A stretch of 40,000 nucleotides of DNA from the NCBI GenBank assembly GCA_944390675.1, contig CALXQR010000003.1, positions 123,896 to 163,895 on the forward strand, in the 5' to 3' direction. The notes beneath the pieces were generated by a model, which saw nothing but the letters and a program-made list of their open reading frames with translations, was not told the DNA's origin and did no database searches. Every line of letters starts with the position of its first letter. The stretch's first letter is position 1. Below are positions 3,624 to 38,038 of the stretch, one piece after another. The translations under genes and the position numbers were made by a program. The DNA is from an uncultured Burkholderiaceae bacterium (lineage in GTDB: Bacteria > Pseudomonadota > Gammaproteobacteria > Burkholderiales > Burkholderiaceae_F).

Positions 3624-3646
3624 AAGGGCACCGCGCTGGTGCCCTT
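3624..3646. terminator. Bidirectional hairpin terminator between convergent genes
   Basis: AAGGGCACC-gcgct-GGTGCCCTT, a 9-bp perfect stem. Confidence 0.65.
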
Positions 3647-3653
3647 AATCGCT

Positions 3654-4016
3654 TCATGCGACCCGTTTTCGCATGGCTCTTTTTATGAACTCCGGCGGCT
3701 CCGGCTGCCGGTTTATTTTTTTCGTGTTCTTGGCGCTCGGAGTGATCGGCCCGGTGATCTCGTAGCTGTTGGTCTGTACGGCGTTTGCCCAGGCAATCAC
3801 CTCTATAGCCTTCCAGCGCGTAGCGTTTGAGATCTTGATGGGCTTAGGGAACGTCGGCTCTGCGTGAGTCAGAAAGGTGACGGTCGATTGACCGATTCCG
3901 AGCACCTTGGCCACCGTTGGCCGATCCCAAAAGAGCTGGCCGTATTCCGGAAAATCCTGAGCTTTCACAGCGGCCACCGCCTTGGCGCGAGCCATCATTT
4001 CGTTTGTGCTTTCCAT
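3654..4016 (-). CDS. AlpA/excisionase-family HTH DNA-binding protein (candidate Xis / recombination directionality factor)
   Basis: WDRPTVAKVLGIGQSTVTFLTHAEPTFPKPIKISNATRWKAIEVIAWANA fits the HTH_17/AlpA pattern (HTH then ...RW...ev..W). Confidence 0.6.
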   Translation of the reverse strand: MESTNEMMARAKAVAAVKAQDFPEYGQLFWDRPTVAKVLGIGQSTVTFLTHAEPTFPKPIKISNATRWKAIEVIAWANAVQTNSYEITGPITPSAKNTKKINRQPEPPEFIKRAMRKRVA

Positions 4017-4025
4017 GGTCTCTCC

Positions 4026-4271
4026 TTATTCCGGCCGATTGAAGTAGCGCCAGTAGCAGCCTTCAAGCCACCGTTTGAACTGTTCCGGATTGAGCCTGCA
4101 GACGGCCTCCTGGCGGCGCTCCGGGATCACGTTGACAAAGCGCTCGCTCACATCAAAGGCGTCGCCGGCATCGGTTTTGATCCGGATGACAAAAAACACT
4201 TTGCCGTTTTGGAAAACTTCAAGGATCTCGCCGCAGGGCAAAACCGGGTTTTTGATTCGCTGCCAACTCAT
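4026..4271 (-). CDS. Hypothetical protein (81 aa)
   Basis: I prefer the internal ATG (MSWQRIK...) because a GAGG RBS lies 5 nt upstream and it avoids overlap with the upstream gene. The track ORF extends to 4343. Confidence 0.5.
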   Translation of the reverse strand: MSWQRIKNPVLPCGEILEVFQNGKVFFVIRIKTDAGDAFDVSERFVNVIPERRQEAVCRLNPEQFKRWLEGCYWRYFNRPE

Positions 4272-4278
4272 GACGGCC

Positions 4279-4674
4279 TCATTTAACCCAGGTTTCCACG
4301 CAGTGGTTTGCGCAGAGCACGCCGAGTTTTGAGTACAGCTCATCGAGCGTGGTGCTGATCTTTTTGGTCTTTTCGAAATCCGTCACGTTTTCGACCATGG
4401 CGCTCTGGTTGTCAGCGATCTCGCGCTTGATCGCGCGAAACTCTTCGCGCTCGGTGATGATGATCACCTGACACGCCTCACCGCTTTCCTCTTCAGGCTC
4501 CTCGGATTTGAGCAGAGCCTCTTCACAGCGTGCGAGCAGGTTCTCAAGCTGCTTTTCGTCTCCTTTGCTCAGGCCGTAATCGCCTGCCATGCCGTAGTGG
4601 TAGTCAATGACACTGCAAATGTCGGCCAGAAGCGATGTTGGGATTTTCACGGTTGGTTCGATTCGTTTTGTCAT
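4279..4674 (-). CDS. Hypothetical acidic protein (131 aa)
   Basis: ORF 4279-4686. The second ATG (MTKRIEP) has a GGAG RBS. No recognisable family. Confidence 0.55.
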   Translation of the reverse strand: MTKRIEPTVKIPTSLLADICSVIDYHYGMAGDYGLSKGDEKQLENLLARCEEALLKSEEPEEESGEACQVIIITEREEFRAIKREIADNQSAMVENVTDFEKTKKISTTLDELYSKLGVLCANHCVETWVK

Positions 4675-4719
4675 GTTGGGCTCCATTGTCCGGACACGCG
4701 AGCGGTGTCCGGTTTGAAT

Positions 4720-4986
4720 TTAAGAAACTTGAGTGAAGTGCGAGCTTTGCAAAATCAAAAGCTCTGCACCGCCGGTGATCGATATGCTCCCATCGAGCAT
4801 GACTGAGGCTTGAGGGATGGCGCGCTCGGGGAGGTACTTTTTGGCGTTGTTAAAGCTCGCCTCAGCAGCGATAAACCACTGTTCGACCATCTTTGCCGAT
4901 GGCTTGGTGCGGCACTTGGCGTGCAAAAAGATTTTGACGGTCTCGCGGCCGGATGCATTCAGTTGAAAAAGCATTTGTAAATCCAC
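4720..4986 (-). CDS. Hypothetical protein (88 aa)
   Basis: ORF in the leftward early operon. No recognisable family. Confidence 0.45.
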   Translation of the reverse strand: MDLQMLFQLNASGRETVKIFLHAKCRTKPSAKMVEQWFIAAEASFNNAKKYLPERAIPQASVMLDGSISITGGAELLILQSSHFTQVS

Positions 4987-5088
4987 AAGTTAAAAACGTG
5001 AATAACGAAAAACGAAAAATGTTGATTTTTATCTTAGCGCAAAATTTCGCTTTTGGCGAATCGCGAGCACGAAAAAGTGTGATTGCGG

Positions 5089-5119
5089 AAAAGAAAAGGG
5101 CGATCAAGAGCGATCGCCC
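5089..5119 (-). terminator. Rho-independent terminator downstream of the repressor gene
   Basis: GGGCGATC-aagagc-GATCGCCC (5098-5119), followed on the minus strand by TTTTCTT. Confidence 0.6.
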
Positions 5120-5134
5120 GCGGTAGAGAAGGGG

Positions 5135-5755
5135 TTACTGGTGGTTGCGGTGTTCGACAACGGTGCCGAGGATGGTGATTTGGTTTTCCGGTTCCTCAAA
5201 GCTGGGGTAGTCGAGGTTGATGGCAAATAGCGAGATCTTGCTGATGCGGGGGCTGCGGAATTTTCTGAGATAAACCGCGCCATCCACGATGGCCAGAACG
5301 TGAGAGCCAGGCACCGGCGGGATGTCCGGATCTACGATGATTTCGTCGCCAGGCTTGAAAGCCGGCAATGAGCTTTCGTCCTGGACGATGTAACCGAAGG
5401 CCTTCGCAGAAAAGTAGTGCGTGGAAATCAGAACCCCGGCGACTTTGTTGGGATCTTCTCTGCCGAGGAGTTGGCCGTCTGTACGAATGGTGATGGCCTG
5501 AATCGGCACATTGATGTTTTGCAGCGTGGTCAGCCCCAGGAGGTAGTCGGCTGAGCAGCCGAGAAGCTGGGCGCAGAGCGCGAGCTTGTCGGCCGGGATC
5601 GATGTGGCTTTCCCATCCGATCGGGCTTTCCAGTTGGTGATGGTTTGAGGATTGACTCCGATGCTCTTTGCGAGCTGCTTTTGCGTGATGCCCTTGCTAT
5701 CCGCAAGCTTCAGGAGCCGATCAATGATGCTAGTGGTATTCGTCATGCGGGTCAT
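5135..5755 (-). CDS. cI: CI/LexA-like phage repressor (N-terminal XRE HTH + C-terminal S24 peptidase domain)
   Basis: KGITQKQLAKSIGVNPQTITNWKA is the HTH. The C-terminal domain carries ...DESSLPAFKPGDEIIVD...AIVDGAVYLRKF. The gene is divergent from a cro-like gene. Confidence 0.85.
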   Translation of the reverse strand: MTRMTNTTSIIDRLLKLADSKGITQKQLAKSIGVNPQTITNWKARSDGKATSIPADKLALCAQLLGCSADYLLGLTTLQNINVPIQAITIRTDGQLLGREDPNKVAGVLISTHYFSAKAFGYIVQDESSLPAFKPGDEIIVDPDIPPVPGSHVLAIVDGAVYLRKFRSPRISKISLFAINLDYPSFEEPENQITILGTVVEHRNHQ

Positions 5756-7717: not shown

Positions 7718-10193
7718 TTTTGACGACATCGCCCGGCAAATGGCCGAAGTAGGGATCTTTGTTCCGGAACGGCATCAGCTGCACGTGACGGCACCCGGCT
7801 ATGACCGGTTCCGTCCGGACGGCCAGAGATCCAAGAAAAAGAGCGCTTGGTACCGGATCTATGAGAACCGCACGCTCAAGGGCCGTGTGTTTTATTCCGG
7901 CAGCTTCGGGATCCGCACCGAGAGCTACCTCATCAAACCCGGCAAGGAAACCTTTACAGAAGAGGAAAAGGCCGAGGCCAAGGAATTTGCCAAGAAAGCA
8001 GCCGAACAGTTTGAAAAGGACCGACAGGCTATGGCTGCCGAAGCCGCCGCACGTGCCGCGAGGCTTTGGAAAATGGGGCATGACGTTGACGGCAAGCAGG
8101 GCTATTTAACCCGCAAGGGCATTAAACCTTACGGTGCTCGGCAGCTTAATGATCAGCTCCTGGTGCCGATGTTTCGTGCCGGCCAGCTCGTGGGCCTGCA
8201 GACGATCTCTCCCGTAAAAGATGAGGATGGACGTGATAAAACGTTCATGCTTGGCAGCCAAATTGCTGGCGCATACATGAAAATCGGCGATTTTGATACG
8301 CGTCCGGATCTCATCTATGTGGTGGAAGGATATGCCACCGGGTGCTCCGTGCATGAAGCCACGGGCGCACCTGTGGTGGTGGCCTTCAATGCCGGCAATC
8401 TGGACAGTGTGACTGCGACTGTGCGCAAAAAGTACGATCAGGCCAAGGTGGTGATTGCCGGTGATGATGATCACTTTTGTGTCAAGCGCGCCAAAGAATT
8501 TTTTGAAAAGACCTTTGGTGTGACGCCGGTTGTGGCCTCAAGCGTCAAGGATCCGGAGGAGACCTTTACGCATCCGGAAAAAGGCGAGGTGGCCTATAAG
8601 TGCTTTAAGCGCATCACAGACGGCGTGCTGGGCGTCTATGGCTATGCACGCTACGTCGAAAAGGGGCGCAAGGTCACGAAAAAGCTCTCCTTTGTCAATG
8701 CCGGCAAAAGCAAGGCCATGGAGGCTGCACGCAAGCACCGCTGCTGCGTGGTGTTTCCGCGTTTTAAAGCAAAGGACTCCACTGGCAGCGACTTCAATGA
8801 CCTCGCTCAGGCCGAAGGCCTTGAGGTCGCGGCAGAACAGCTCAAGGCTGATGACCTTAAGCCGTTGGCTTCGCGCGAAGCGGCTGAGAAAGCGCCGGGC
8901 TTCATGGATGAGCGCATTCGGCGCATGAATGAGCACCTTGTGTACGTCTATCCGGTGGGCTATTGGGATACCGAGCTGCGTGAGCTCGTGGGCGCGCAGC
9001 CTTTGAAGGACCGCTATGACGATGAGACCTTCAAGAACTGGAAAAAGAATCCGGCCAGGCGCGTGATCATGAAAGATCAGCTCTTGTTTGAGCCCGGGCG
9101 CAATGTGCCGGAGGGCTGCATCAACATGTTTGATGGCTGGCCTCTGAAGCCAGACAGCCGCAAGGCCTGTGATCTCATCATTGAGAATCTTTACGACCTT
9201 TGCGGTCGTGATGATGACGTGTTTTGGTGGGTGGCCAAGTGGTTGGCGTATCCCCTGCAGCATCCGGGGGCAAAGATGCACCAGGCGCTTTTGGTGCATG
9301 GGGCCAAGGAGGGCACCGGCAAAAGTTTCATGTTTGAAGTGGTCATGCGCGAGATCTATGGGCGCTACGGGGGAACGATCAACCAGGACATCATGGATGA
9401 CAAGTACACCACGTGGCAGAGCCAAAAGCTTTTCATTCTTGGTGAGGAAATTGTGTCATCGGCCGAACGCCGAAAGCAAAAGAACCTCATTAAAACGTGG
9501 ATCACCGGCAAGTATCACCAGGTGGTGAGCAAGTACGTCAATTCGCGTGAAGAGGTGAATCTCACCAATTTCGTGTTTCTCTCAAACGAGCTGCAGCCTT
9601 TGGTGCTTGATGAGTATGACCGGCGGTTTATGGTCATCTACAACGATCTTAAGCACGACCAGGCGTACTTCAAAAACCTGGCCGAGCAAGTGGATGCCGG
9701 CGGTGTTGAGGGGTTTTATGACTGGCTGCTGCACATCGATCTGGGGGATTTCGGGCCGGATACGCCCGTGCTTGAGACAGAGGCTCACCAGGCGCTTAAA
9801 TCGCTTGGTAAAGCCTCGGATGCCCGTTTCCTGGATGATTGGCTCAGTGAATCGCTGGATTATCCCGTCGGGCCCGTGGCCGGCATTCATCTGTATGCGG
9901 CCTATGACCTATGGCGCAAAAAGACTAATGAGCGGCCGGTAACGCAAACAGCGTTTCTTACCGCATTGGGTCGAAAGATGCGCAGTGAACGCCGGCGGGT
10001 CGATCTGTACCCGGAAAATGAGTATTACGGCCCGGACAAGGTTGTTAGCGGTCTTGTGACGGAAAAGCGGATGCTGACGGTTTATTTCCCGGTTGAAAAG
10101 CAACTCGATGCCAATGAAGTGGCCGACAGCGTGCGGGCGTTTCAGTTGAAAATGCTGCAGAACCGGCAGCAGTATCACAGCTATGGGGGCTAA
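7707..10193 (+). CDS. Bifunctional DNA primase (Toprim) / SF3 helicase, P4-alpha-like replication protein
   Basis: Toprim region LIYVVEGYATGCSVHEATGAPVVVAFNAGNL...VVIAGDDD. C-terminal P-loop HGAKEGTGKSFMFE with downstream LFILGEE (Walker B-like). The start overlaps the Rha stop and has a GGGAGG RBS. Confidence 0.85.
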   Translation: MASSFDDIARQMAEVGIFVPERHQLHVTAPGYDRFRPDGQRSKKKSAWYRIYENRTLKGRVFYSGSFGIRTESYLIKPGKETFTEEEKAEAKEFAKKAAEQFEKDRQAMAAEAAARAARLWKMGHDVDGKQGYLTRKGIKPYGARQLNDQLLVPMFRAGQLVGLQTISPVKDEDGRDKTFMLGSQIAGAYMKIGDFDTRPDLIYVVEGYATGCSVHEATGAPVVVAFNAGNLDSVTATVRKKYDQAKVVIAGDDDHFCVKRAKEFFEKTFGVTPVVASSVKDPEETFTHPEKGEVAYKCFKRITDGVLGVYGYARYVEKGRKVTKKLSFVNAGKSKAMEAARKHRCCVVFPRFKAKDSTGSDFNDLAQAEGLEVAAEQLKADDLKPLASREAAEKAPGFMDERIRRMNEHLVYVYPVGYWDTELRELVGAQPLKDRYDDETFKNWKKNPARRVIMKDQLLFEPGRNVPEGCINMFDGWPLKPDSRKACDLIIENLYDLCGRDDDVFWWVAKWLAYPLQHPGAKMHQALLVHGAKEGTGKSFMFEVVMREIYGRYGGTINQDIMDDKYTTWQSQKLFILGEEIVSSAERRKQKNLIKTWITGKYHQVVSKYVNSREEVNLTNFVFLSNELQPLVLDEYDRRFMVIYNDLKHDQAYFKNLAEQVDAGGVEGFYDWLLHIDLGDFGPDTPVLETEAHQALKSLGKASDARFLDDWLSESLDYPVGPVAGIHLYAAYDLWRKKTNERPVTQTAFLTALGRKMRSERRRVDLYPENEYYGPDKVVSGLVTEKRMLTVYFPVEKQLDANEVADSVRAFQLKMLQNRQQYHSYGG

Positions 10194-10215
10194 TAACATG
10201 CAGGATTCTACGTGT

Positions 10216-10494
10216 TGTGCAGGGTCTGTGCAGGGTTTGTGCATGGTTTGTGCAGGGTTTGAGAATGGAGAAAACGCAATGAAAACAACAAGTTATGACA
10301 ATGTGTGCAGGGTGTGCAGGGTTTACGCAGGCGCGCACGTATGCGCACGCGTACCCGCGCGCGCAGGTACGCGCGCATACGAATGTTTTTTAACGCAAAA
10401 CCCTGCACACTATGCACAGTTTTCTTTTTCTCTTTTAAAAACAAACGGTTAAAGGAATTAAGACCCTGCACAAACCCTACACAAACCCTGCACA
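10216..10494. repeat. Iteron array / candidate phage origin of replication
   Basis: TGTGCAGGGT-type units start at 10216, 10227, 10238 and 10249 (11-bp period), and at 10304 and 10313. Inverted ACCCTGCACA-type units start at 10400, 10463, 10474 and 10485 (11-bp period). The two arms flank a GC-rich alternating Pu/Py tract and an AT-rich stretch. Confidence 0.65.
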
Positions 10495-31123: not shown

Positions 31124-32887
31124 ATGGCTTACGTTTTAACCATCACTGATGCAGGCCTCGCCGCGTTGGTGAATGCCCAAAAGAACGGGACAACACCCGT
31201 GATTTTTGAAACGGTACAGTTCGGCACTGGGAAATATACGCCGACAGGGCAGGAAACTGCGCTGCAGGCGTCGTTCAAAACCCTGGACACGATTCAAGGC
31301 GGTGCGGTTGGAGACAATATCATTCATGTGACTGTTTCTGACTTTTCTGCAGAGGCCTATACGGTTTATGAGGCCGGTATCTTTACTGACGATGGTGTGC
31401 TTTTTGCTGTGATCAGTCAAGATACGCCGTTGGCCCAGAAGGCCGCCGGCTCTCAACTTTTGATGTCCTTTGATCTGGTGCTCGAGCAAGCCGGAGAAAC
31501 AGACATCGAGTTGGGTAACACGAACTTTTTCAATCCTCCGGCCACAACGACAACAGCCGGCATTGTCCGGATGGCCACGGCAGCAGAGGTAGAGGCTGGT
31601 CTTTTGTCTGGTGTTGCTGTCTCGCCAGCCGGGCTTAAAGCCAAACTTGAAAAACCCGGGAGCCTCAACGGCAGTGCTTTCCAGGACGGGTCGATCGGCT
31701 TAGGCAAGCTTTCCGAAAAGCCGGTAAGCACCGCCGAGCAAACACTGACGCCGCAAGAGCAGCAGCAGGCTCGAGAAAACATGGGCTTGACAGAGGCTGG
31801 CACGACGCAGCTCATCATTGCTTCGTCGCCTCGTTGGTACAAGCGGCCGAATTTGCCGACGGTGGCCAAAACGTCCGTAACGATTCCCGCCAATACGCAG
31901 GTCAACATTGGCAACGCGGGCTACATCAGCACAACGGATACCACGCTGCAGCTAAGCACTGTGGGAGAGGCGGCCGCTCGAGCGGGCAAGGATGTATACA
32001 TCTACGCCTGCAAGCCGACATCTGGATCCGAACCGGTGTTTGTGCTTTCTCTCAACAGTACAGTGCCGACCGGATATAACGCTCAAAACTCTCGGAAAAT
32101 CGGCGGATTCCATTGCTTGTGCGCCTCTGTTGGCACGATTTCGGGGCATACGTTGAGCGGCTATGCAGCCGGCGACATCTTGCCTTTGTCCGTTTGGGAT
32201 CTGCTGCACCGGCCGGTGAGCGAGCCGGAGGGCATGGTTTGGATTGAGGGATTGGGCATTTGGGTCGATATTTATCTCGGGTCTTACAACGGCAGCAAGC
32301 TTGTGAGCGCCTACGGAGCATTGACTGCTGACGGCTCTTCGAGTCCCGCTTTCCACGGTGAGAAGTTCGCTGAGTATGCAGGATTGGTCGGCAAGCGTTT
32401 GGTTCGTCGCGATGAGTTCATTGTGTTTGCAAAGGGCTCAAACGAGGAAACAAGCATTTCCGGAGGTGTGGATCCAAATACGACCGGCGGACACGTGGAT
32501 ACGGCTGGCCGCAGAATGATTTCGAACTATGGTATTGAGGACTGCTGCGGGGCGTTGTGGCAATGGACTTCAGATGTTTTTGATTCCTGGGATGGTCACA
32601 GCGCGACTTGGCGAACAGAGTCCAATTCCGAAACGTATACCGAGGGCGAGATGCGTTACTACCTCGATGGCTATTCGTGGAAAAAGGAGAGCGTATTTAA
32701 TCCCGCTTTCGATTCCACTGGGCACGGCTCTTGCATCGGTTTGCTGCGTCGCGGCCTTGTTGGGGCGTTCTGGGGCGACGGGTCGCTTTGCGGTTCTCGC
32801 TCGGCGGTTCTGTACTACTTTTCGTCTCGCGGCTGGGCTTATAACGGGTGCCGGCTTTCGTCCGAGCCACGGGTCGTAAACCTCTAA
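31124..32887 (+). CDS. Tail fibre / receptor-binding protein, DGR target (gpH-like N-terminus, variable C-terminus)
   Basis: The N-terminus VLTITDAGLAALVNAQKNGTTPVIFETVQFGTGKYTP...YEAGIFTDDGVLFAV parallels the P2 gpH N-terminus. The last ~50 codons are the VR. WQWT and ...GFWGDGS.CGSRS....GCR features resemble Mtd/FGE-type CLec variable domains. Confidence 0.85.
   Translation: MAYVLTITDAGLAALVNAQKNGTTPVIFETVQFGTGKYTPTGQETALQASFKTLDTIQGGAVGDNIIHVTVSDFSAEAYTVYEAGIFTDDGVLFAVISQDTPLAQKAAGSQLLMSFDLVLEQAGETDIELGNTNFFNPPATTTTAGIVRMATAAEVEAGLLSGVAVSPAGLKAKLEKPGSLNGSAFQDGSIGLGKLSEKPVSTAEQTLTPQEQQQARENMGLTEAGTTQLIIASSPRWYKRPNLPTVAKTSVTIPANTQVNIGNAGYISTTDTTLQLSTVGEAAARAGKDVYIYACKPTSGSEPVFVLSLNSTVPTGYNAQNSRKIGGFHCLCASVGTISGHTLSGYAAGDILPLSVWDLLHRPVSEPEGMVWIEGLGIWVDIYLGSYNGSKLVSAYGALTADGSSSPAFHGEKFAEYAGLVGKRLVRRDEFIVFAKGSNEETSISGGVDPNTTGGHVDTAGRRMISNYGIEDCCGALWQWTSDVFDSWDGHSATWRTESNSETYTEGEMRYYLDGYSWKKESVFNPAFDSTGHGSCIGLLRRGLVGAFWGDGSLCGSRSAVLYYFSSRGWAYNGCRLSSEPRVVNL
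32730..32865 (+). repeat. DGR variable repeat (VR)
   Basis: Gap-free alignment to 33050-33185 (offset 320). There are 20 mismatches, 19 of them opposite TR adenines. Confidence 0.9.
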
Positions 32888-32989
32888 CCGGAGGGCCGAG
32901 GAGGTCGCGGTCTGCAAACCGCAAGTCGGAAAGTAATGCCGGCGAAGCCGGCCGCGCAATTTTTTAAGGAGGGCTTTAACAAAAGGGTA

Positions 32990-33049: not shown

Positions 33050-33185
33050 CTTGCATCAGTTTGCTGCGTCGCAGCCATGTTGGGGCGAACTGGGGCAACA
33101 GGTCGAATTGCGGTTCTCGCACGGCGAATCTGAACAACTTTTCGTCTAACAGCTGGGCGAATAACAGGTGCCGGCTTTCGTCCGA
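33050..33185 (+). repeat. DGR template repeat (TR)
   Basis: 136 nt with 27 adenines, concentrated in AAC/AAT/AGC codons when read in the fibre frame. Noncoding in its own context; the track ORF start at 33168 is spurious. Confidence 0.9.
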
Positions 33186-33311
33186 TACGCAGAGTACAGG
33201 CTTTGCCTAATCCCGCGGCTGGATCTTTTGGCCTTCTCGAAAGGGAAAACACACAAAGGGAATGAGGTGCGGCTAGTAGCAATAAGCGAACGTCGTGCCT
33301 CATACATTTCA

Positions 33312-34337
33312 ATGAAAAGACATGGACATCTTTGGGACAAGCTCGTGGATCCTGAAAATCTGCGGCTTGCGATCAAGAATGCCTCAAGGGGGAAGCGCTG
33401 GCAGCGCAAAGTTAAAAAAGTGCTTGCCAGGGAGGATGAGTGTGTGCAGGAATTGCACAACATGCTCATCAGCGGCCAATACCATACAGCAAAGTACAAA
33501 ACAAAGGTCATATACGAACCCAAGCAGCGCACAATCTTCATTTTGCCGTTTTATCCGGATCGAATAGTGCACCATGCCATCATGCAAGTGTTGGAGCCCA
33601 TTTGGGATGGGCTTTTGATCTCCGATTCCTACGCTTGTCGAATTGGCAAAGGTCAGCACGCCGGATCTCGGCGGTGCATGCAATGGACAAGGCAATTTAA
33701 GTATTGCTTGAAATGTGATGTGAGCAAGTTTTATCCCTCGCTCGATCATGAGGTCCTCAGAAAAATCATTCGTAAGAAACTCAAGGATCCGTTCCTTTTG
33801 AATCTTTTGGATGAGATTATCGGCAGTGTGCCAAATGGCAAAAATGTACCGATTGGAAATTACTTGAGCCAATGGTTTGGCAATATCTACCTCAATGAGC
33901 TTGACACCTTTATTAAGCAAGAAAAGCGAATCAAGCCCTATTTGCGCTATTGCGATGATTTCGTCATTTTTTCAAACGACAAAAGCGAGCTTCATGCGCT
34001 TGCCGGTGAAATCAAAGATTTCCTTGGCAGCAAGTTGCTCTTGCGTTTGAGCAAGTGTGAAGTTTTTCCGGTAACTCAGGGAATTGATTTTCTTGGATAT
34101 CGTCATTTTCCGCAAGGTTACATTCTGGTGAGGAAATCGACGGCCAAGCGAGTCAAAAAACGGATGTCGGTTGTATTGCATGAATTGGAGTCAGGCAGGC
34201 TGACGGTTGAGAGAGCGACCGCGAAAGTGGCCAGCACCGAAGGGTGGCTTAAACATGCCAACACGAGGCATTTCAGTTTGTCATTAAAACTGGCAGAGAT
34301 CAAAAAGGAGATAGCAAATCATGAAAAAGTTCAGTGA
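33312..34337 (+). CDS. DGR reverse transcriptase
   Basis: MKRHGHLWDKLVDPENLRLAIKNASRGKR N-terminus, SYACRIGKGQHAG, DVSKFYPSLDH, the DGR-specific IGNYLSQWFGNIYLNELD, the catalytic RYCDDFVIF, and GIDFLGYR. Confidence 0.9.
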   Translation: MKRHGHLWDKLVDPENLRLAIKNASRGKRWQRKVKKVLAREDECVQELHNMLISGQYHTAKYKTKVIYEPKQRTIFILPFYPDRIVHHAIMQVLEPIWDGLLISDSYACRIGKGQHAGSRRCMQWTRQFKYCLKCDVSKFYPSLDHEVLRKIIRKKLKDPFLLNLLDEIIGSVPNGKNVPIGNYLSQWFGNIYLNELDTFIKQEKRIKPYLRYCDDFVIFSNDKSELHALAGEIKDFLGSKLLLRLSKCEVFPVTQGIDFLGYRHFPQGYILVRKSTAKRVKKRMSVVLHELESGRLTVERATAKVASTEGWLKHANTRHFSLSLKLAEIKKEIANHEKVQ

Positions 34338-34605
34338 CTTTGCGGATGAGCAAGGGCTCGTTGGAGAAAAAATGCCCGTCGCTGAGGTTTTCAATAAAAC
34401 CATTGTCGTGACCGGTTTTCGCGTCATCGACTCTAAAGCAGTCAAGGGCAAACGCTGCCTGCAGCTGCAGTTTGAACTGGACGGCGAAAAGCATGTGCTT
34501 TTCAGTACCAGCGAAGTGCTGTTGCGGCAAACCGAAAAATATGCCGAGCATATTCCGTTTGAAACGGTTATTAAAAAGGTCGGCAGTTATCACACATTTA
34601 CTTAG
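34321..34605 (+). CDS. Hypothetical protein (94 aa) translationally coupled to the RT
   Basis: The ATG overlaps the RT 3' end by 17 nt. No family recognised, and it is not Avd-like by eye. Confidence 0.6.
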   Translation: MKKFSDFADEQGLVGEKMPVAEVFNKTIVVTGFRVIDSKAVKGKRCLQLQFELDGEKHVLFSTSEVLLRQTEKYAEHIPFETVIKKVGSYHTFT

Positions 34606-34614
34606 GTGATCAAA

Positions 34615-34926
34615 ATGCAAGGTTTTCCGAAAACTTTAAACACCCGCGAGGATTATGAATATGTCCGTTTGAATTTTGCAAAAGAGCTCTGGGCTCCTGA
34701 GTTTCAGGCTCTTTTGGATTCGAATTACGGATGGTTTTTCGTCAAGGAATTGGGCGAGGATGAACCTGGCGTGACCGATGACACGCATAAGGTTGAAGAG
34801 CAGCACGACACGTCCGGCGATGCCGAAAAAGTGGTGCGCTATCAGTTTGAATATCGAGAGGTTGAAAACAGCAAACTCAAGCGCTTGGGATATAGCGTTT
34901 CAGAGGTGCAAACATTGCTTCAATAA
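34615..34926 (+). CDS. Hypothetical acidic protein (103 aa), last gene of the DGR unit
   Basis: AGGTGA RBS before ATG 34615. Followed by a strong terminator. No family recognised. Confidence 0.6.
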   Translation: MQGFPKTLNTREDYEYVRLNFAKELWAPEFQALLDSNYGWFFVKELGEDEPGVTDDTHKVEEQHDTSGDAEKVVRYQFEYREVENSKLKRLGYSVSEVQTLLQ

Positions 34927-34948
34927 AGTTTTCGGAGAGCAATAAGAA

Positions 34949-34972
34949 ACCCGCCAGCGTGCGGGTTTTTTA
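34949..34972 (+). terminator. Rho-independent terminator closing the fibre/DGR unit
   Basis: ACCCGC-cagcgt-GCGGGT followed by TTTTTT. Confidence 0.7.
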
Positions 34973-34995
34973 TTGCCTCCGATCAGGAGAAAACA

Positions 34996-36347: not shown

Positions 36348-36374
36348 GCCCGGGCGCGCCCCGGGCTTTTTTTT
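36348..36374. terminator. Bidirectional terminator between the lysis cassette and int
   Basis: GCCCGGG-cgcgc-CCCGGGC followed by TTTTTTTT. Confidence 0.75.
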
Positions 36375-37737
36375 ATTCAATGCCGAGCGTTTTCTTTTTA
36401 ATGGCTGAAACTTCGCTCATGCAGAACTTAGCCCAGGCATCAAAGACCAGTCGCATTTCTCCAATCGCCTGGTCGCGATCATAGGCACAAGAGTAGTTTT
36501 CATGGCTGTGATCCAAGCAGCTTTCACGGATATCCCAAGAAAATTGAGGATGGTTAAAGCCGCTTGCATCTTTTGCCCAGGTGTTGAAAGTCGCTCGAGC
36601 AAGTCCATGAGGCGTCACTCGACGCGGAAAACCGGTGGGGTTGAGTTGATTGAGATCCACCCAGCCGATGCCGTCAAGCTTTTTCTTTTCCATGTGCAGC
36701 GTTTTGATAGGCTTTGAGAGGCCGTCAAGTGACATGGGTTCAAATCGTCCTTCTCGGATGTTTGGAAAGACAAAAGGACACTCAAGTTCGAAGCGCGGAG
36801 CGGTTTTCAAAAGCCAAAGCGCTTCAGGCGACAAAGGTGTTTTTCTGTCGAAAGGGATCTTGTTCTTTTTCACTTTCATGCGCTCGCGAGGGATGACGTG
36901 CATGGATCCTTTTGGGGAATCCCAGACGATTTCATCCCATCGGGCTTCTCTGGCAGTGGAGTTTCTGGCTGCCGTGAGGATGGCAAAGGCGAGACACCGT
37001 GCGCCCTGAGAGGTTCGCACGTGATCGAGCAGCGCGGCAAAAAACGCCGGCATTTGATCCGGTGGCAAGGCTGGTTCATTGCCGCTTTGCGGCCGCTGCA
37101 GAGGCAGGAGATCTCCGAGACGGCCATCTTTGACTTGGGCCGGATTGGGGCCTGCAGGGATGAGTTTTTCTCGCATAGCCCAGTCGATGGCCTGTTTGAG
37201 ATCCGACAGGATTCTTTCAGGTGTGTCGATCATTGTGCGCCATTTTTCAGCGAACACGTCAGCCAGGCGCTCAGCGGTTAGTTGAATGACCGGCATTGTG
37301 GCCACGTCAACCGGTACATGATTGCGCAGATACCCGAGCCATAACTCATCCCGGGGGCGTGAGGCGTCAGCCCAGCGGCCACGTGCCACATTGAAGTCAA
37401 TCCACTTGAAAATCAACTCCTCAACGGTCAGGCTTTTGTGCTGGATGGCCATACGTTTGATTTTTTGCTCTTCAGATGGATCTATGCCTTCATCGAGCTT
37501 TTTGCGCCAGTCTGCAGCCTTTTTGAAGGCTTCGGCCAGAGACATTTCTGGATAGGCTCCCAGGGCAAAATGGCGTGTTGCTCCGTTTCTTTGATAGCGC
37601 AGGAAAAAATACTTTCGAATGTAGCCGTTTTGCAGTTTTGATACCTTGATAATGAGGCCAGGGACGCCGCCGCAGGAGGTTGTTTTTGTGATGCTCTGCA
37701 GCTTTTTGTCGGTGATCTTGGGGAGCAGCTTTGGCAT
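36373..37737 (-). CDS. int: Tyrosine integrase, P4-type (DUF4102 arm-binding N-terminus)
   Basis: GLIIKVSKLQNGYIRKYFFLRYQRNGATRHFALGAYPEMSLAEAFKKAADWRKKLDEGIDP is the N-terminal domain. The C-terminal catalytic region has ...TPHGLARATFNTWA... and HSHENYSCAYDRD (catalytic Tyr). Start at MPKLLPK with an AGGA RBS. Confidence 0.9.
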   Translation of the reverse strand: MPKLLPKITDKKLQSITKTTSCGGVPGLIIKVSKLQNGYIRKYFFLRYQRNGATRHFALGAYPEMSLAEAFKKAADWRKKLDEGIDPSEEQKIKRMAIQHKSLTVEELIFKWIDFNVARGRWADASRPRDELWLGYLRNHVPVDVATMPVIQLTAERLADVFAEKWRTMIDTPERILSDLKQAIDWAMREKLIPAGPNPAQVKDGRLGDLLPLQRPQSGNEPALPPDQMPAFFAALLDHVRTSQGARCLAFAILTAARNSTAREARWDEIVWDSPKGSMHVIPRERMKVKKNKIPFDRKTPLSPEALWLLKTAPRFELECPFVFPNIREGRFEPMSLDGLSKPIKTLHMEKKKLDGIGWVDLNQLNPTGFPRRVTPHGLARATFNTWAKDASGFNHPQFSWDIRESCLDHSHENYSCAYDRDQAIGEMRLVFDAWAKFCMSEVSAIKKKTLGIE

Positions 37738-37749
37738 ATCATTTCCTTT

Positions 37750-37817
37750 TATAAGTAACAATGAAATTTCCCGGATCGCAAAAACGGTGTTTTTGTTACT
37801 TATAGTTGTTACTTATA
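37750..37817. repeat. Candidate integrase arm-type binding sites
   Basis: TTGTTACTTATA at 37793-37804 and 37806-37817 (tandem), and its reverse complement TATAAGTAACAA at 37750-37761. They lie between int and the att core. Confidence 0.55.
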
Positions 37818-37920
37818 AACGCGAGCTTGTGGCAAAAGCGGGCGACAGTGGGCAATAAACTTTTTGCGGAAAAATCGCTCGGAAAGCCTTTGTTTGTAAG
37901 GAAAAGGATAGCAAAGGGCA

Positions 37921-37953
37921 ACAAAAAAAGCGACCTGGCAACAAGGTCGCTTT
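37921..37953 (-). terminator. Rho-independent terminator of tRNA-Pro (on the prophage side of the junction)
   Basis: AAAGCGACCT-ggcaaca-AGGTCGCTTT followed on the minus strand by a T-run. Related in sequence to the hairpin at 2456-2476. Confidence 0.65.
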
Positions 37954-37961
37954 TGGAATCC

Positions 37962-38038
<77 letters not shown>

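Follow-up and report, generated by a model that had tools for sequence, protein, structure and literature searches.

Two conserved protein families coupled to the reverse transcriptase of Avd-less phage diversity-generating retroelements, with a Sutterellaceae prophage cassette as the example

A complete diversity-generating cassette

The stretch of DNA analyzed here, called the window throughout, comprises 40,000 nt of contig CALXQR010000003.1 (assembly GCA_944390675.1, positions 123,896 to 163,895 of the forward strand) from an uncultured Burkholderiaceae bacterium. The window was confirmed to hold a complete diversity-generating retroelement (DGR), composed of an Mtd-like tail fiber gene carrying the variable repeat (VR), a template repeat (TR) as well as a reverse transcriptase (RT), after which come two small open reading frames, ORF1 and ORF2, and a terminator. 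These two ORFs are the subject of the present work. The features of the cassette are as follows (pI, isoelectric point; E, expectation value; dG, folding free energy).

31124-32887, plus strand: tail fiber gene, the DGR target, 587 aa (Phage_tail_fib N-terminal domain, E 2.9e-6; mtd_2nd, E 1.3e-25)
32730-32865, plus strand: VR, a 136-nt direct repeat of TR, 85% identical, in the 3' end of the fiber gene
32938-32952, plus strand: GC-rich hairpin GCCGGC-GAA-GCCGGC found in a terminator scan, with six G-C pairs and a 3-nt loop, about 50 nt after the fiber stop and between VR and TR
33050-33185, plus strand: TR, 136 nt with 27 adenines
33186-33311, plus strand: spacer of 126 nt between TR and the RT start
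33312-34337, plus strand: DGR reverse transcriptase, 341 aa, pI 9.75 (RVT_1, E 5.8e-15; phrog_1423, E 1.4e-113)
34321-34605, plus strand: ORF1, 94 aa, pI 7.9, candidate RT-coupled DGR accessory protein, predicted to be a small beta-barrel resembling an oligonucleotide-binding (OB) fold
34615-34926, plus strand: ORF2, 103 aa, pI 4.63, second candidate accessory protein, with a predicted alpha-alpha-beta-beta-beta-alpha-alpha fold
34932-34982, unstranded: terminator hairpin (dG -35.8 kcal/mol, z -9.0; core stem 34947-34968) that closes the cassette

The VR occupies the 3' end of this Mtd-type target gene and ends 22 nt before its stop codon. A match of the fiber to FGE-sulfatase/CLec was weak and below the Pfam cut-off. 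When the TR/VR alignment was read by eye, 19 of the 20 mismatches fell on TR adenines, and the repeat pair with this adenine-specific pattern is adjoined by an RT of the DGR type. The interval from the fiber stop (32887) to the TR start measures 162 nt and contains no plausible ORF. By analogy with the hairpins that follow the VR in other DGRs, according to the MyDGR description, the hairpin at 32938-32952 may serve in target recognition. Similarly, by analogy with the BPP-1 spacer RNA, a role in priming may be proposed for the spacer downstream of TR, whose length is close to the clade median of 132 nt from TR end to RT start. Among deposited phages the nearest RT was that of Methanosarcinales virus vir525 (53% identity), and crAss-like RTs were 36-44% identical.

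The last 17 nt of the RT gene overlap with ORF1, whose ATG is in the +1 frame with a GGAG 10 nt upstream, and ORF2 starts 9 nt past the ORF1 stop with an AGGTGA (34604-34609) placed 5 nt before its ATG. The terminator stands between ORF2 and the holin gene; none of 200 shuffled sequences was as stable, and the hairpin is bidirectional in form, with an A-run before it and a U-run after it. An initial annotation of this DNA had described a DGR with no recognizable avd, a VR-TR gap of about 160 nt without an ORF, a first small gene starting within the RT, a second, acidic one with its own ribosome binding site, and a strong terminator at the end of the unit. The coordinates and each of these descriptions agree with the present results.

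The DGR is active in nature, as is directly evident at the population level. Compared with the window, two near-identical prophages (L092 and L093) show no differences in TR (0/136) or the spacer (0/126) and 5-13 differences in the RT (of 1026 positions), while their VRs depart from that of the window at 13-16 of 136 sites, with 12-15 of these among the 27 TR adenine positions. Variation of the VR at TR adenines, with TR and spacer invariant, indicates recent mutagenic retrohoming in a cassette without a recognizable Avd. Across the clade of related RTs, a TR/VR pair was found in 71 of 79 RT clusters (80% identity), and 1325 of 1451 mismatches were located at TR adenines. The cassette visibly diversifies its target in human-gut Sutterellaceae prophages. 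It was also observed that VR alleles differ among near-identical prophages of separate metagenome-assembled genomes (MAGs; L092, L093 and L094, on Sutterella and Ca. Aphodousia contigs), nearly all of the differences being at TR-adenine positions and TR and spacer being unchanged.

Linkage and conservation of ORF1 and ORF2

Related loci were sampled from three independent starts, namely ORF2, the RT and ORF1. The ORF2-side set consisted of 101 loci (80 IMG/VR loci, 10 genome loci, the contigs of the first matches and the window itself). RT, ORF1 and ORF2 were collinear and adjacent in 85 of them, the RT was directly before ORF2 or fused to it in 6, and 10 had no RT, 4 of these at contig edges. 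On the RT side, the best 80 IMG/VR relatives of the window RT (49-65% identity) carried both ORFs in 32 cases, ORF1 only in 36, ORF2 only in 11 and an RT::ORF2 fusion in one, and none carried neither. Co-occurrence with the RT clade, which the initial annotation had raised as a matter to be settled, was therefore seen in every one of these best 80 relatives. Starting from ORF1, with a narrow alignment as the query, the RT was adjacent in 22/22 loci.

The contact between the genes is unusually close. The start of ORF1 overlaps the 3' end of the RT gene in 120 of 129 distinct loci (median -11 nt), and in 128 of the 129 ORF1 is directly downstream of the RT, its start overlapping the RT stop or lying at most 2 nt from it. 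The median gap from the ORF1 stop to the ORF2 start is 12 nt. Synteny ends after the pair, the next gene belonging to 71 unrelated clusters across 85 loci. Furthermore, the ORFs can be joined to the polymerase itself. In-frame RT::ORF1 fusions were found in four independent representatives of 50%-identity clusters (P0149, P0223, P0255 and P0264), each with an N-terminal RVT_1 and a C-terminal ORF1 domain; three loci (L083, L085 and L087) encode a 467-aa RT::ORF2 protein; and in L013 the RT, an ORF1-like segment and ORF2 share one stop-free frame of 558 codons. In locus L203 the order is target (VR 3645-3764), ORF1 (3785-4093), TR (4117-4236) and RT (4384-5415). ORF1 is thus placed between VR and TR, the canonical position of Avd, in an arrangement that mirrors the mtd-avd-TR-brt order of the Bordetella phage cassette. 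Neither the fusions nor the L203 layout would be expected of a fiber chaperone or a cargo gene.

Some departures from the usual layout were also recorded. In L187 (3605-3877) and L195 (3630-3995), RT and ORF1 are separated by an additional small, unrelated ORF of 90-121 aa. L085 carries, 3 kb downstream from its RT::ORF2 fusion gene, a second RT-like ORF (9197-10387) with a weak match to the RT of the window (E 2.4e-7). A Megasphaera MAG locus (L101, 4336-6294) has both ORFs intact and no TR-RT.

In a quick RT tree of 105 clusters (85% identity), 50 had both ORFs, 40 ORF1 only and 8 ORF2 only. The architecture was mostly coherent within clades, with the nearest neighbor being of the same type in 81 of 102 cases. 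The most divergent RTs, those of the archaeal viruses ANMV-1 and Methanosarcinales virus vir525 among them, fall in ORF1-only cassettes, and for this reason ORF1 would appear to be the earlier of the two partners and ORF2 a later gain of a large sub-clade. In both archaeal viruses ORF1 comes after the RT, in ANMV-1 directly so (AJP62065.1; locus L179, KP703175.1, 2708-4276). The hosts include Sutterellaceae, Faecalibacterium, Clostridiales, Veillonellaceae/Megasphaera and one Geobacter MAG. In four loci classed as ORF1-only (L122, L143, L153 and L162), the gene after ORF1 encodes a protein of about 90 aa that shares with ORF2 only the N-terminal motif M-x-G-[FY]-P-K...D-[YL]-x-N-L-L. Such divergent ORF2-like proteins indicate that the ORF2 family is broader than its hidden Markov model suggests, and conservation of the motif suggests that it may be the functional core of the family.

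Among RT relatives checked at 44% identity or less, cr55_1, Perkons, Saumur and phiARM81mr were without both ORFs, and two of them, Saumur and phiARM81mr, carry Avd. A small ORF overlapping the RT stop is present also in phiARM81mr (L184, 3517-3798), crAss-like cr55_1 (L181, 3726-4061) and Saumur (L183, 3585-4028). These were considered as remote ORF1 homologs and rejected, since no relation to ORF1 was detectable. It may be that DGRs more generally have a small gene translationally coupled to the end of the RT, a feature so far overlooked.

Single-sequence searches retrieved only a few relatives of ORF1 and ORF2, while profile searches reached much further. By the latter, the ORF1 family has 854 representatives at 50% identity, 382 of them with E<=1e-10, and the ORF2 family at least 220 clusters at 90% identity. 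Judged by this sequence conservation, both were confirmed to be protein families and not chance ORFs. Neither had a usable match in Pfam, PHROGs, NCBIfam, PADLOC or the PDB sequences, and their relatives have no Pfam domain and are mostly named 'hypothetical protein' in the source databases. Specifically, no HRDC or MutS_I domain was found in either protein (Pfam, NCBIfam), nor any match to tail-fiber assembly or chaperone families (Pfam, PHROGs). Among deposited phage genomes, blastn with the ORF1-ORF2 DNA and tblastn with ORF2 returned nothing. Two entries in the families call for caution. P0028, an ORF2 homolog of 103 aa, bears the JGI label 'predicted SAM-dependent methyltransferase' and has no such domain, almost certainly a mis-annotation. 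P0254 (2269 aa) contains 13 separate segments that align with positions 10-44 of the ORF1 profile, as well as a PBP domain at its C-terminus, and is probably a repeat or compositional artifact and not a homolog.

AlphaFold2 (AF2) models were obtained from deep alignments. For ORF1, with a predicted local distance difference test score (pLDDT) of 93.8 and a predicted template modeling score of 0.80, the model is a small barrel with one helix and five to six strands. DSSP assigned strands to residues 27-37, 45-53, 56-62, 80-87 and 90-93 and a helix to residues 65-73. The resulting beta-beta-beta-alpha-beta-beta order and five-stranded barrel are those of an OB fold, and the size is that of an OB domain, which likens the predicted ORF1 structure to single-strand-binding (SSB) proteins and RPA. 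ORF1 has no sequence similarity to these proteins. The weak Foldseek list for ORF1 nevertheless consists mostly of OB-fold nucleic-acid binders (RPA, SSB, HIN domains), plus DUF2500. OB-fold cofactors exist for other reverse transcriptases, e.g., telomerase accessory proteins. For ORF2 (pLDDT 88.3) the model shows two helices, a three-stranded sheet and two short helices, and the sole borderline Foldseek match in BFVD was one uncharacterized myovirus protein (E 1e-3). The beta-rich character that the initial annotation had attributed to ORF1 is borne out by its model, and neither model is a helical bundle. N-terminal motifs are highly conserved in both families (M-K-K-F-S-D-F in ORF1 and M-x-G-[FY]-P-K in ORF2) and fall within lower-confidence regions of the models, which would fit docking peptides.

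Absence of Avd and relation to known systems

The absence of Avd was examined at several levels. In the window, none of 92 ORFs of 85-190 aa in six frames matched bAvd (PF22296) or 23S_rRNA_IVP (PF05635) at E<=0.01. The same library recognized the Avd proteins of Saumur (E 3.5e-18) and phiARM81mr (E 1.5e-39) as positive controls, both of which match PF22296. Comparison of the ORF1 and ORF2 profiles with true Avd gave hhalign probabilities of 0.2-0.3%, in line with the view of the initial annotation that neither protein is Avd-like. Around the RT in about 62 diverse loci of the clade, 146 co-oriented ORFs of Avd size contained no Avd, while a spiked-in control Avd was recovered. The median distance from target stop to RT start across the clade is 326 nt, which leaves no room for avd, and in the few clade loci with larger VR-TR or target-RT gaps the ORFs within them are not Avd. 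In the loci sampled, Avd was never found together with the ORF1 or ORF2 families.

DGRs without avd are already known; what is new here is a probable accessory module made of two previously uncharacterized protein families. In the survey of Wu et al. (2018), 26% of DGRs were without avd, Architecture A (target-TR-RT) was described as having 'no accessory genes', RT Lineage 3 was without avd, and 'Avd-independent mutagenic homing' was proposed for such cassettes. CrAssphage LMMB is reported to lack avd as well and to belong to that lineage. The present cassettes have the same core order, target(VR)-TR-RT without avd, as Architecture A and Lineage 3 including the crAss-like members. However, two conserved families follow the RT here, whereas crAss-like cr55_1, whose RT is 42% identical to that of the window, is without ORF1 and ORF2.

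The accessory genes listed by Wu et al. (2018) are HRDC, MSL, CH1 and four tentative PAGs (PAG1-4) seen in 3-4 DGRs each. CH1 resembles ORF2 in being a conserved hypothetical small gene that flanks the RT in Avd-less DGRs and encodes an acidic product (pI 4.7). However, at 160-169 aa compared to the 103 aa of ORF2, its size fits neither ORF. PAG1-4 were seen in 3-4 DGRs each, as opposed to hundreds of ORF1 and ORF2 members, though a partial prior sighting of ORF1 or ORF2 may be among them. Accessory genes are not discussed by Roux et al. (2021) or in the Faecalibacterium prophage study, and MyDGR looks for known accessory domains only. In Paul et al. (2015) the ANMV-1 cassette is drawn with an arrow labeled 'Avd'; Avd is named in the figure legends only and no homology is stated, and the arrow may stand for the ORF1 homolog or for another ORF. 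In that paper, too, nanoarchaeal ORFs are called 'Avd-like' by size and pI and not by homology. In the literature consulted, where PAG1-4 could be compared by description only, no account of the ORF1 or ORF2 families was found.

Avd of Bordetella phage BPP-1 is the system with which ORF1 and ORF2 invite comparison. Like them, it is a small protein (about 100-130 aa) of a DGR cassette, co-expressed with the RT, and it is encoded between VR and TR, as ORF1 is in L203. On the other hand, ORF1 and ORF2 have no sequence relation to Avd (PF22296/PF05635), as judged by the hhalign values above and the absence of a PDB sequence match. Avd is a helical bundle, whereas ORF1 is predicted to be a beta-barrel and ORF2 an alpha/beta protein. 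Avd is strongly basic (pI about 9.5; Wu et al., 2018), with 9.14 and 9.87 for the two controls, while the family medians are 7.95 for ORF1 and 4.78 for ORF2, i.e., near neutral and acidic, respectively. Finally, ORF1 and ORF2 usually come after the RT with overlapping codons.

Possible role of ORF1 and ORF2 and the prophage setting

We consider it highly likely that ORF1 and ORF2 are linked to the DGR. It is also probable that they are dedicated, RT-linked accessory proteins of an Avd-less phage DGR clade, taking a cofactor role in Avd's place. Within this reading, a cofactor role in cDNA synthesis is the less certain part; it is suggested by the mutual exclusivity with Avd, the gene position, the fusions and the OB-like fold. 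From the same observations we infer a physical complex, binding of nucleic acid and the step at which the proteins would act.

A possible course of events can be outlined. TR, spacer, RT, ORF1 and ORF2 would be transcribed as one unit ending at 34932-34982. Ribosomes ending the RT would re-initiate on ORF1, and ORF2 would follow 9 nt after the ORF1 stop, so that the three proteins would be made together. ORF1 could then attach to the RT, which is very basic, and/or to either the TR-spacer RNA or nascent cDNA, and so act as the cofactor that Avd is in the DGR of the Bordetella phage, and the acidic alpha/beta protein ORF2 could be a second subunit or a modulator of the RT-ORF1 complex. The RT would copy TR into adenine-mutagenized cDNA, which would replace the VR of the tail fiber gene. 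In its most specific form, in which ORF1 (with ORF2 in the large sub-clade) and the RT form a new Avd-free DGR ribonucleoprotein and ORF1 is an OB-fold RNA/cDNA-binding cofactor common to DGRs of bacterial and archaeal viruses (ANMV-1, vir525), this proposal is tentative, and we would rate it somewhat below an even chance.

Several observations weigh against this reading. Neither ORF is universal in the clade, 40 of the 105 RT clusters having ORF1 only and 8 ORF2 only. Foldseek gave no significant match for ORF1 in the PDB (best E 0.05, TM-score 0.3-0.5), and nothing similar to ORF2 was found there. In five or six loci (L101, L100/L069, L067, L088 and L044) ORF2, alone or together with ORF1, has been retained beside fiber genes resembling DGR targets, and no RT is found within range; only residues 57-95 of ORF1 are left in L100 and L069, suggestive of a decayed cassette. 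Every example is a phage with an Mtd-like fiber target, and a fiber-linked role is compatible with this context. In addition, the absence of Avd holds for the 40-kb window, and a copy could be present elsewhere in the host genome; Wu et al. (2018) sought trans copies of avd in genomes with Avd-less DGRs and found none.

The initial annotation had left three options for the two proteins: novel accessory factors replacing Avd, fiber-assembly chaperones in the position of P2 gpG, or unrelated cargo. The comparative evidence strongly favors the first and speaks against the third and, for the most part, the second, by virtue of the RT overlap, the fusions, L203 and the variable downstream gene. The main competing explanation is one in which ORF1 and ORF2 act in the DGR at a step unlike that of Avd, such as regulation, SSB-like protection or annealing of cDNA, or integration at the VR, while the RT primes and synthesizes cDNA alone. 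The evidence for RT linkage applies equally to it, an OB-like fold fits binding of single-stranded DNA as well as of RNA, the dispensability of each ORF for some clade members is more in keeping with a modulator than with a cofactor that is essential, and the near-neutral ORF1 (7.95) and acidic ORF2 (4.78) are unlike Avd (9.1-9.9). We nonetheless regard it as unlikely, given that ORF1 and/or ORF2 are present wherever Avd is missing in the clade, that ORF1 can occupy the Avd slot (L203) and that the RT fusions point to the polymerase itself as the site of action.

Less likely again is that the two are fiber-associated proteins, either chaperones in the position of P2 gpG or small accessories, which travel with the Mtd-like fiber while TR and RT merely lie between. 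P2 gpG-type assembly proteins are indeed encoded just after the fiber gene, and the pair comes after baseplate J, I and the fiber, where P2 has gpG. The restriction to phages with Mtd-like fibers, and the RT-less loci L101, L100/L069, L067 and L088 with ORF2 and in part ORF1 next to fiber-like genes, also suit this explanation. However, neither protein matches a tail-fiber assembly family (Pfam, PHROGs), and both are interlocked with, and sometimes fused to, the RT: the ORF1 start is embedded in the RT 3' end (120/129 loci), in-frame RT::ORF1, RT::ORF2 and triple fusions occur, and L203 has ORF1 between VR and TR. The RT-less cases are also few, and those with a truncated ORF1 (L100, L069) resemble cassette decay. 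As for unrelated cargo (morons) or lysis-module genes placed beside the RT by chance, the fact that holin, lysozyme and spanin genes directly follow in the window and its closest relatives might have suggested it. This is effectively excluded, since the downstream neighbor is mostly unrelated (71 clusters in 85 loci), ORF2 and the holin gene have a strong terminator between them, the pair occurs without an RT in a few loci only and neither protein has a PADLOC match.

How cDNA is primed and synthesized in Avd-less DGRs has been a question since the study of Wu et al. (2018), and ORF1 and ORF2 are concrete candidates for part of that group. If one or both are RT cofactors, the known DGR mechanisms would widen, phage DGRs having then met the need for an RT cofactor in at least two unrelated ways, and the DGRs of bacterial and archaeal viruses would be linked by a common accessory protein. 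Moreover, DGR finders such as MyDGR would gain new markers. Directed evolution based on DGRs, now reliant on bRT and Avd, would gain alternative parts, and a compact Avd-free toolkit for targeted mutagenesis might become possible.

Regarding the genomic setting, a P2/Mu-like myovirus prophage of Sutterellaceae occupies the 3' third of the window with its tail and lysis end. The baseplate genes gpV, gpW, gpJ and gpI precede the tail fiber (31124-32887), and a holin, a lysozyme and a spanin-like gene come after the cassette terminator, as they do in the closest relatives. The protein HIT96783.1 of Candidatus Aphodousia faecavium, named 'hypothetical protein', has the same sequence as ORF1 of the window, and the locus was found at 98% identity on contigs of Sutterella and Ca. 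Aphodousia. A gut member of the Sutterellaceae is almost certainly the source of the DNA. Two further features delimit the prophage.

36373-37761: integrase, tyrosine-type, with a homolog that has Arm-DNA-bind_3
37962-38038: tRNA-Pro(cgg), beside which the prophage is integrated

Past the integrase and tRNA-Pro(cgg) (together 36373-38038), the attachment site is marked by a host gene for a polyprenyl synthase. In other members of the clade the flanks include Tad2-like (anti-Thoeris) genes in three loci, as well as Mu Gp36/Gp37, HK97-gp10-like genes and several different lysis enzymes. This variety of flanking genes indicates that the cassette sits in several unrelated phage backbones.

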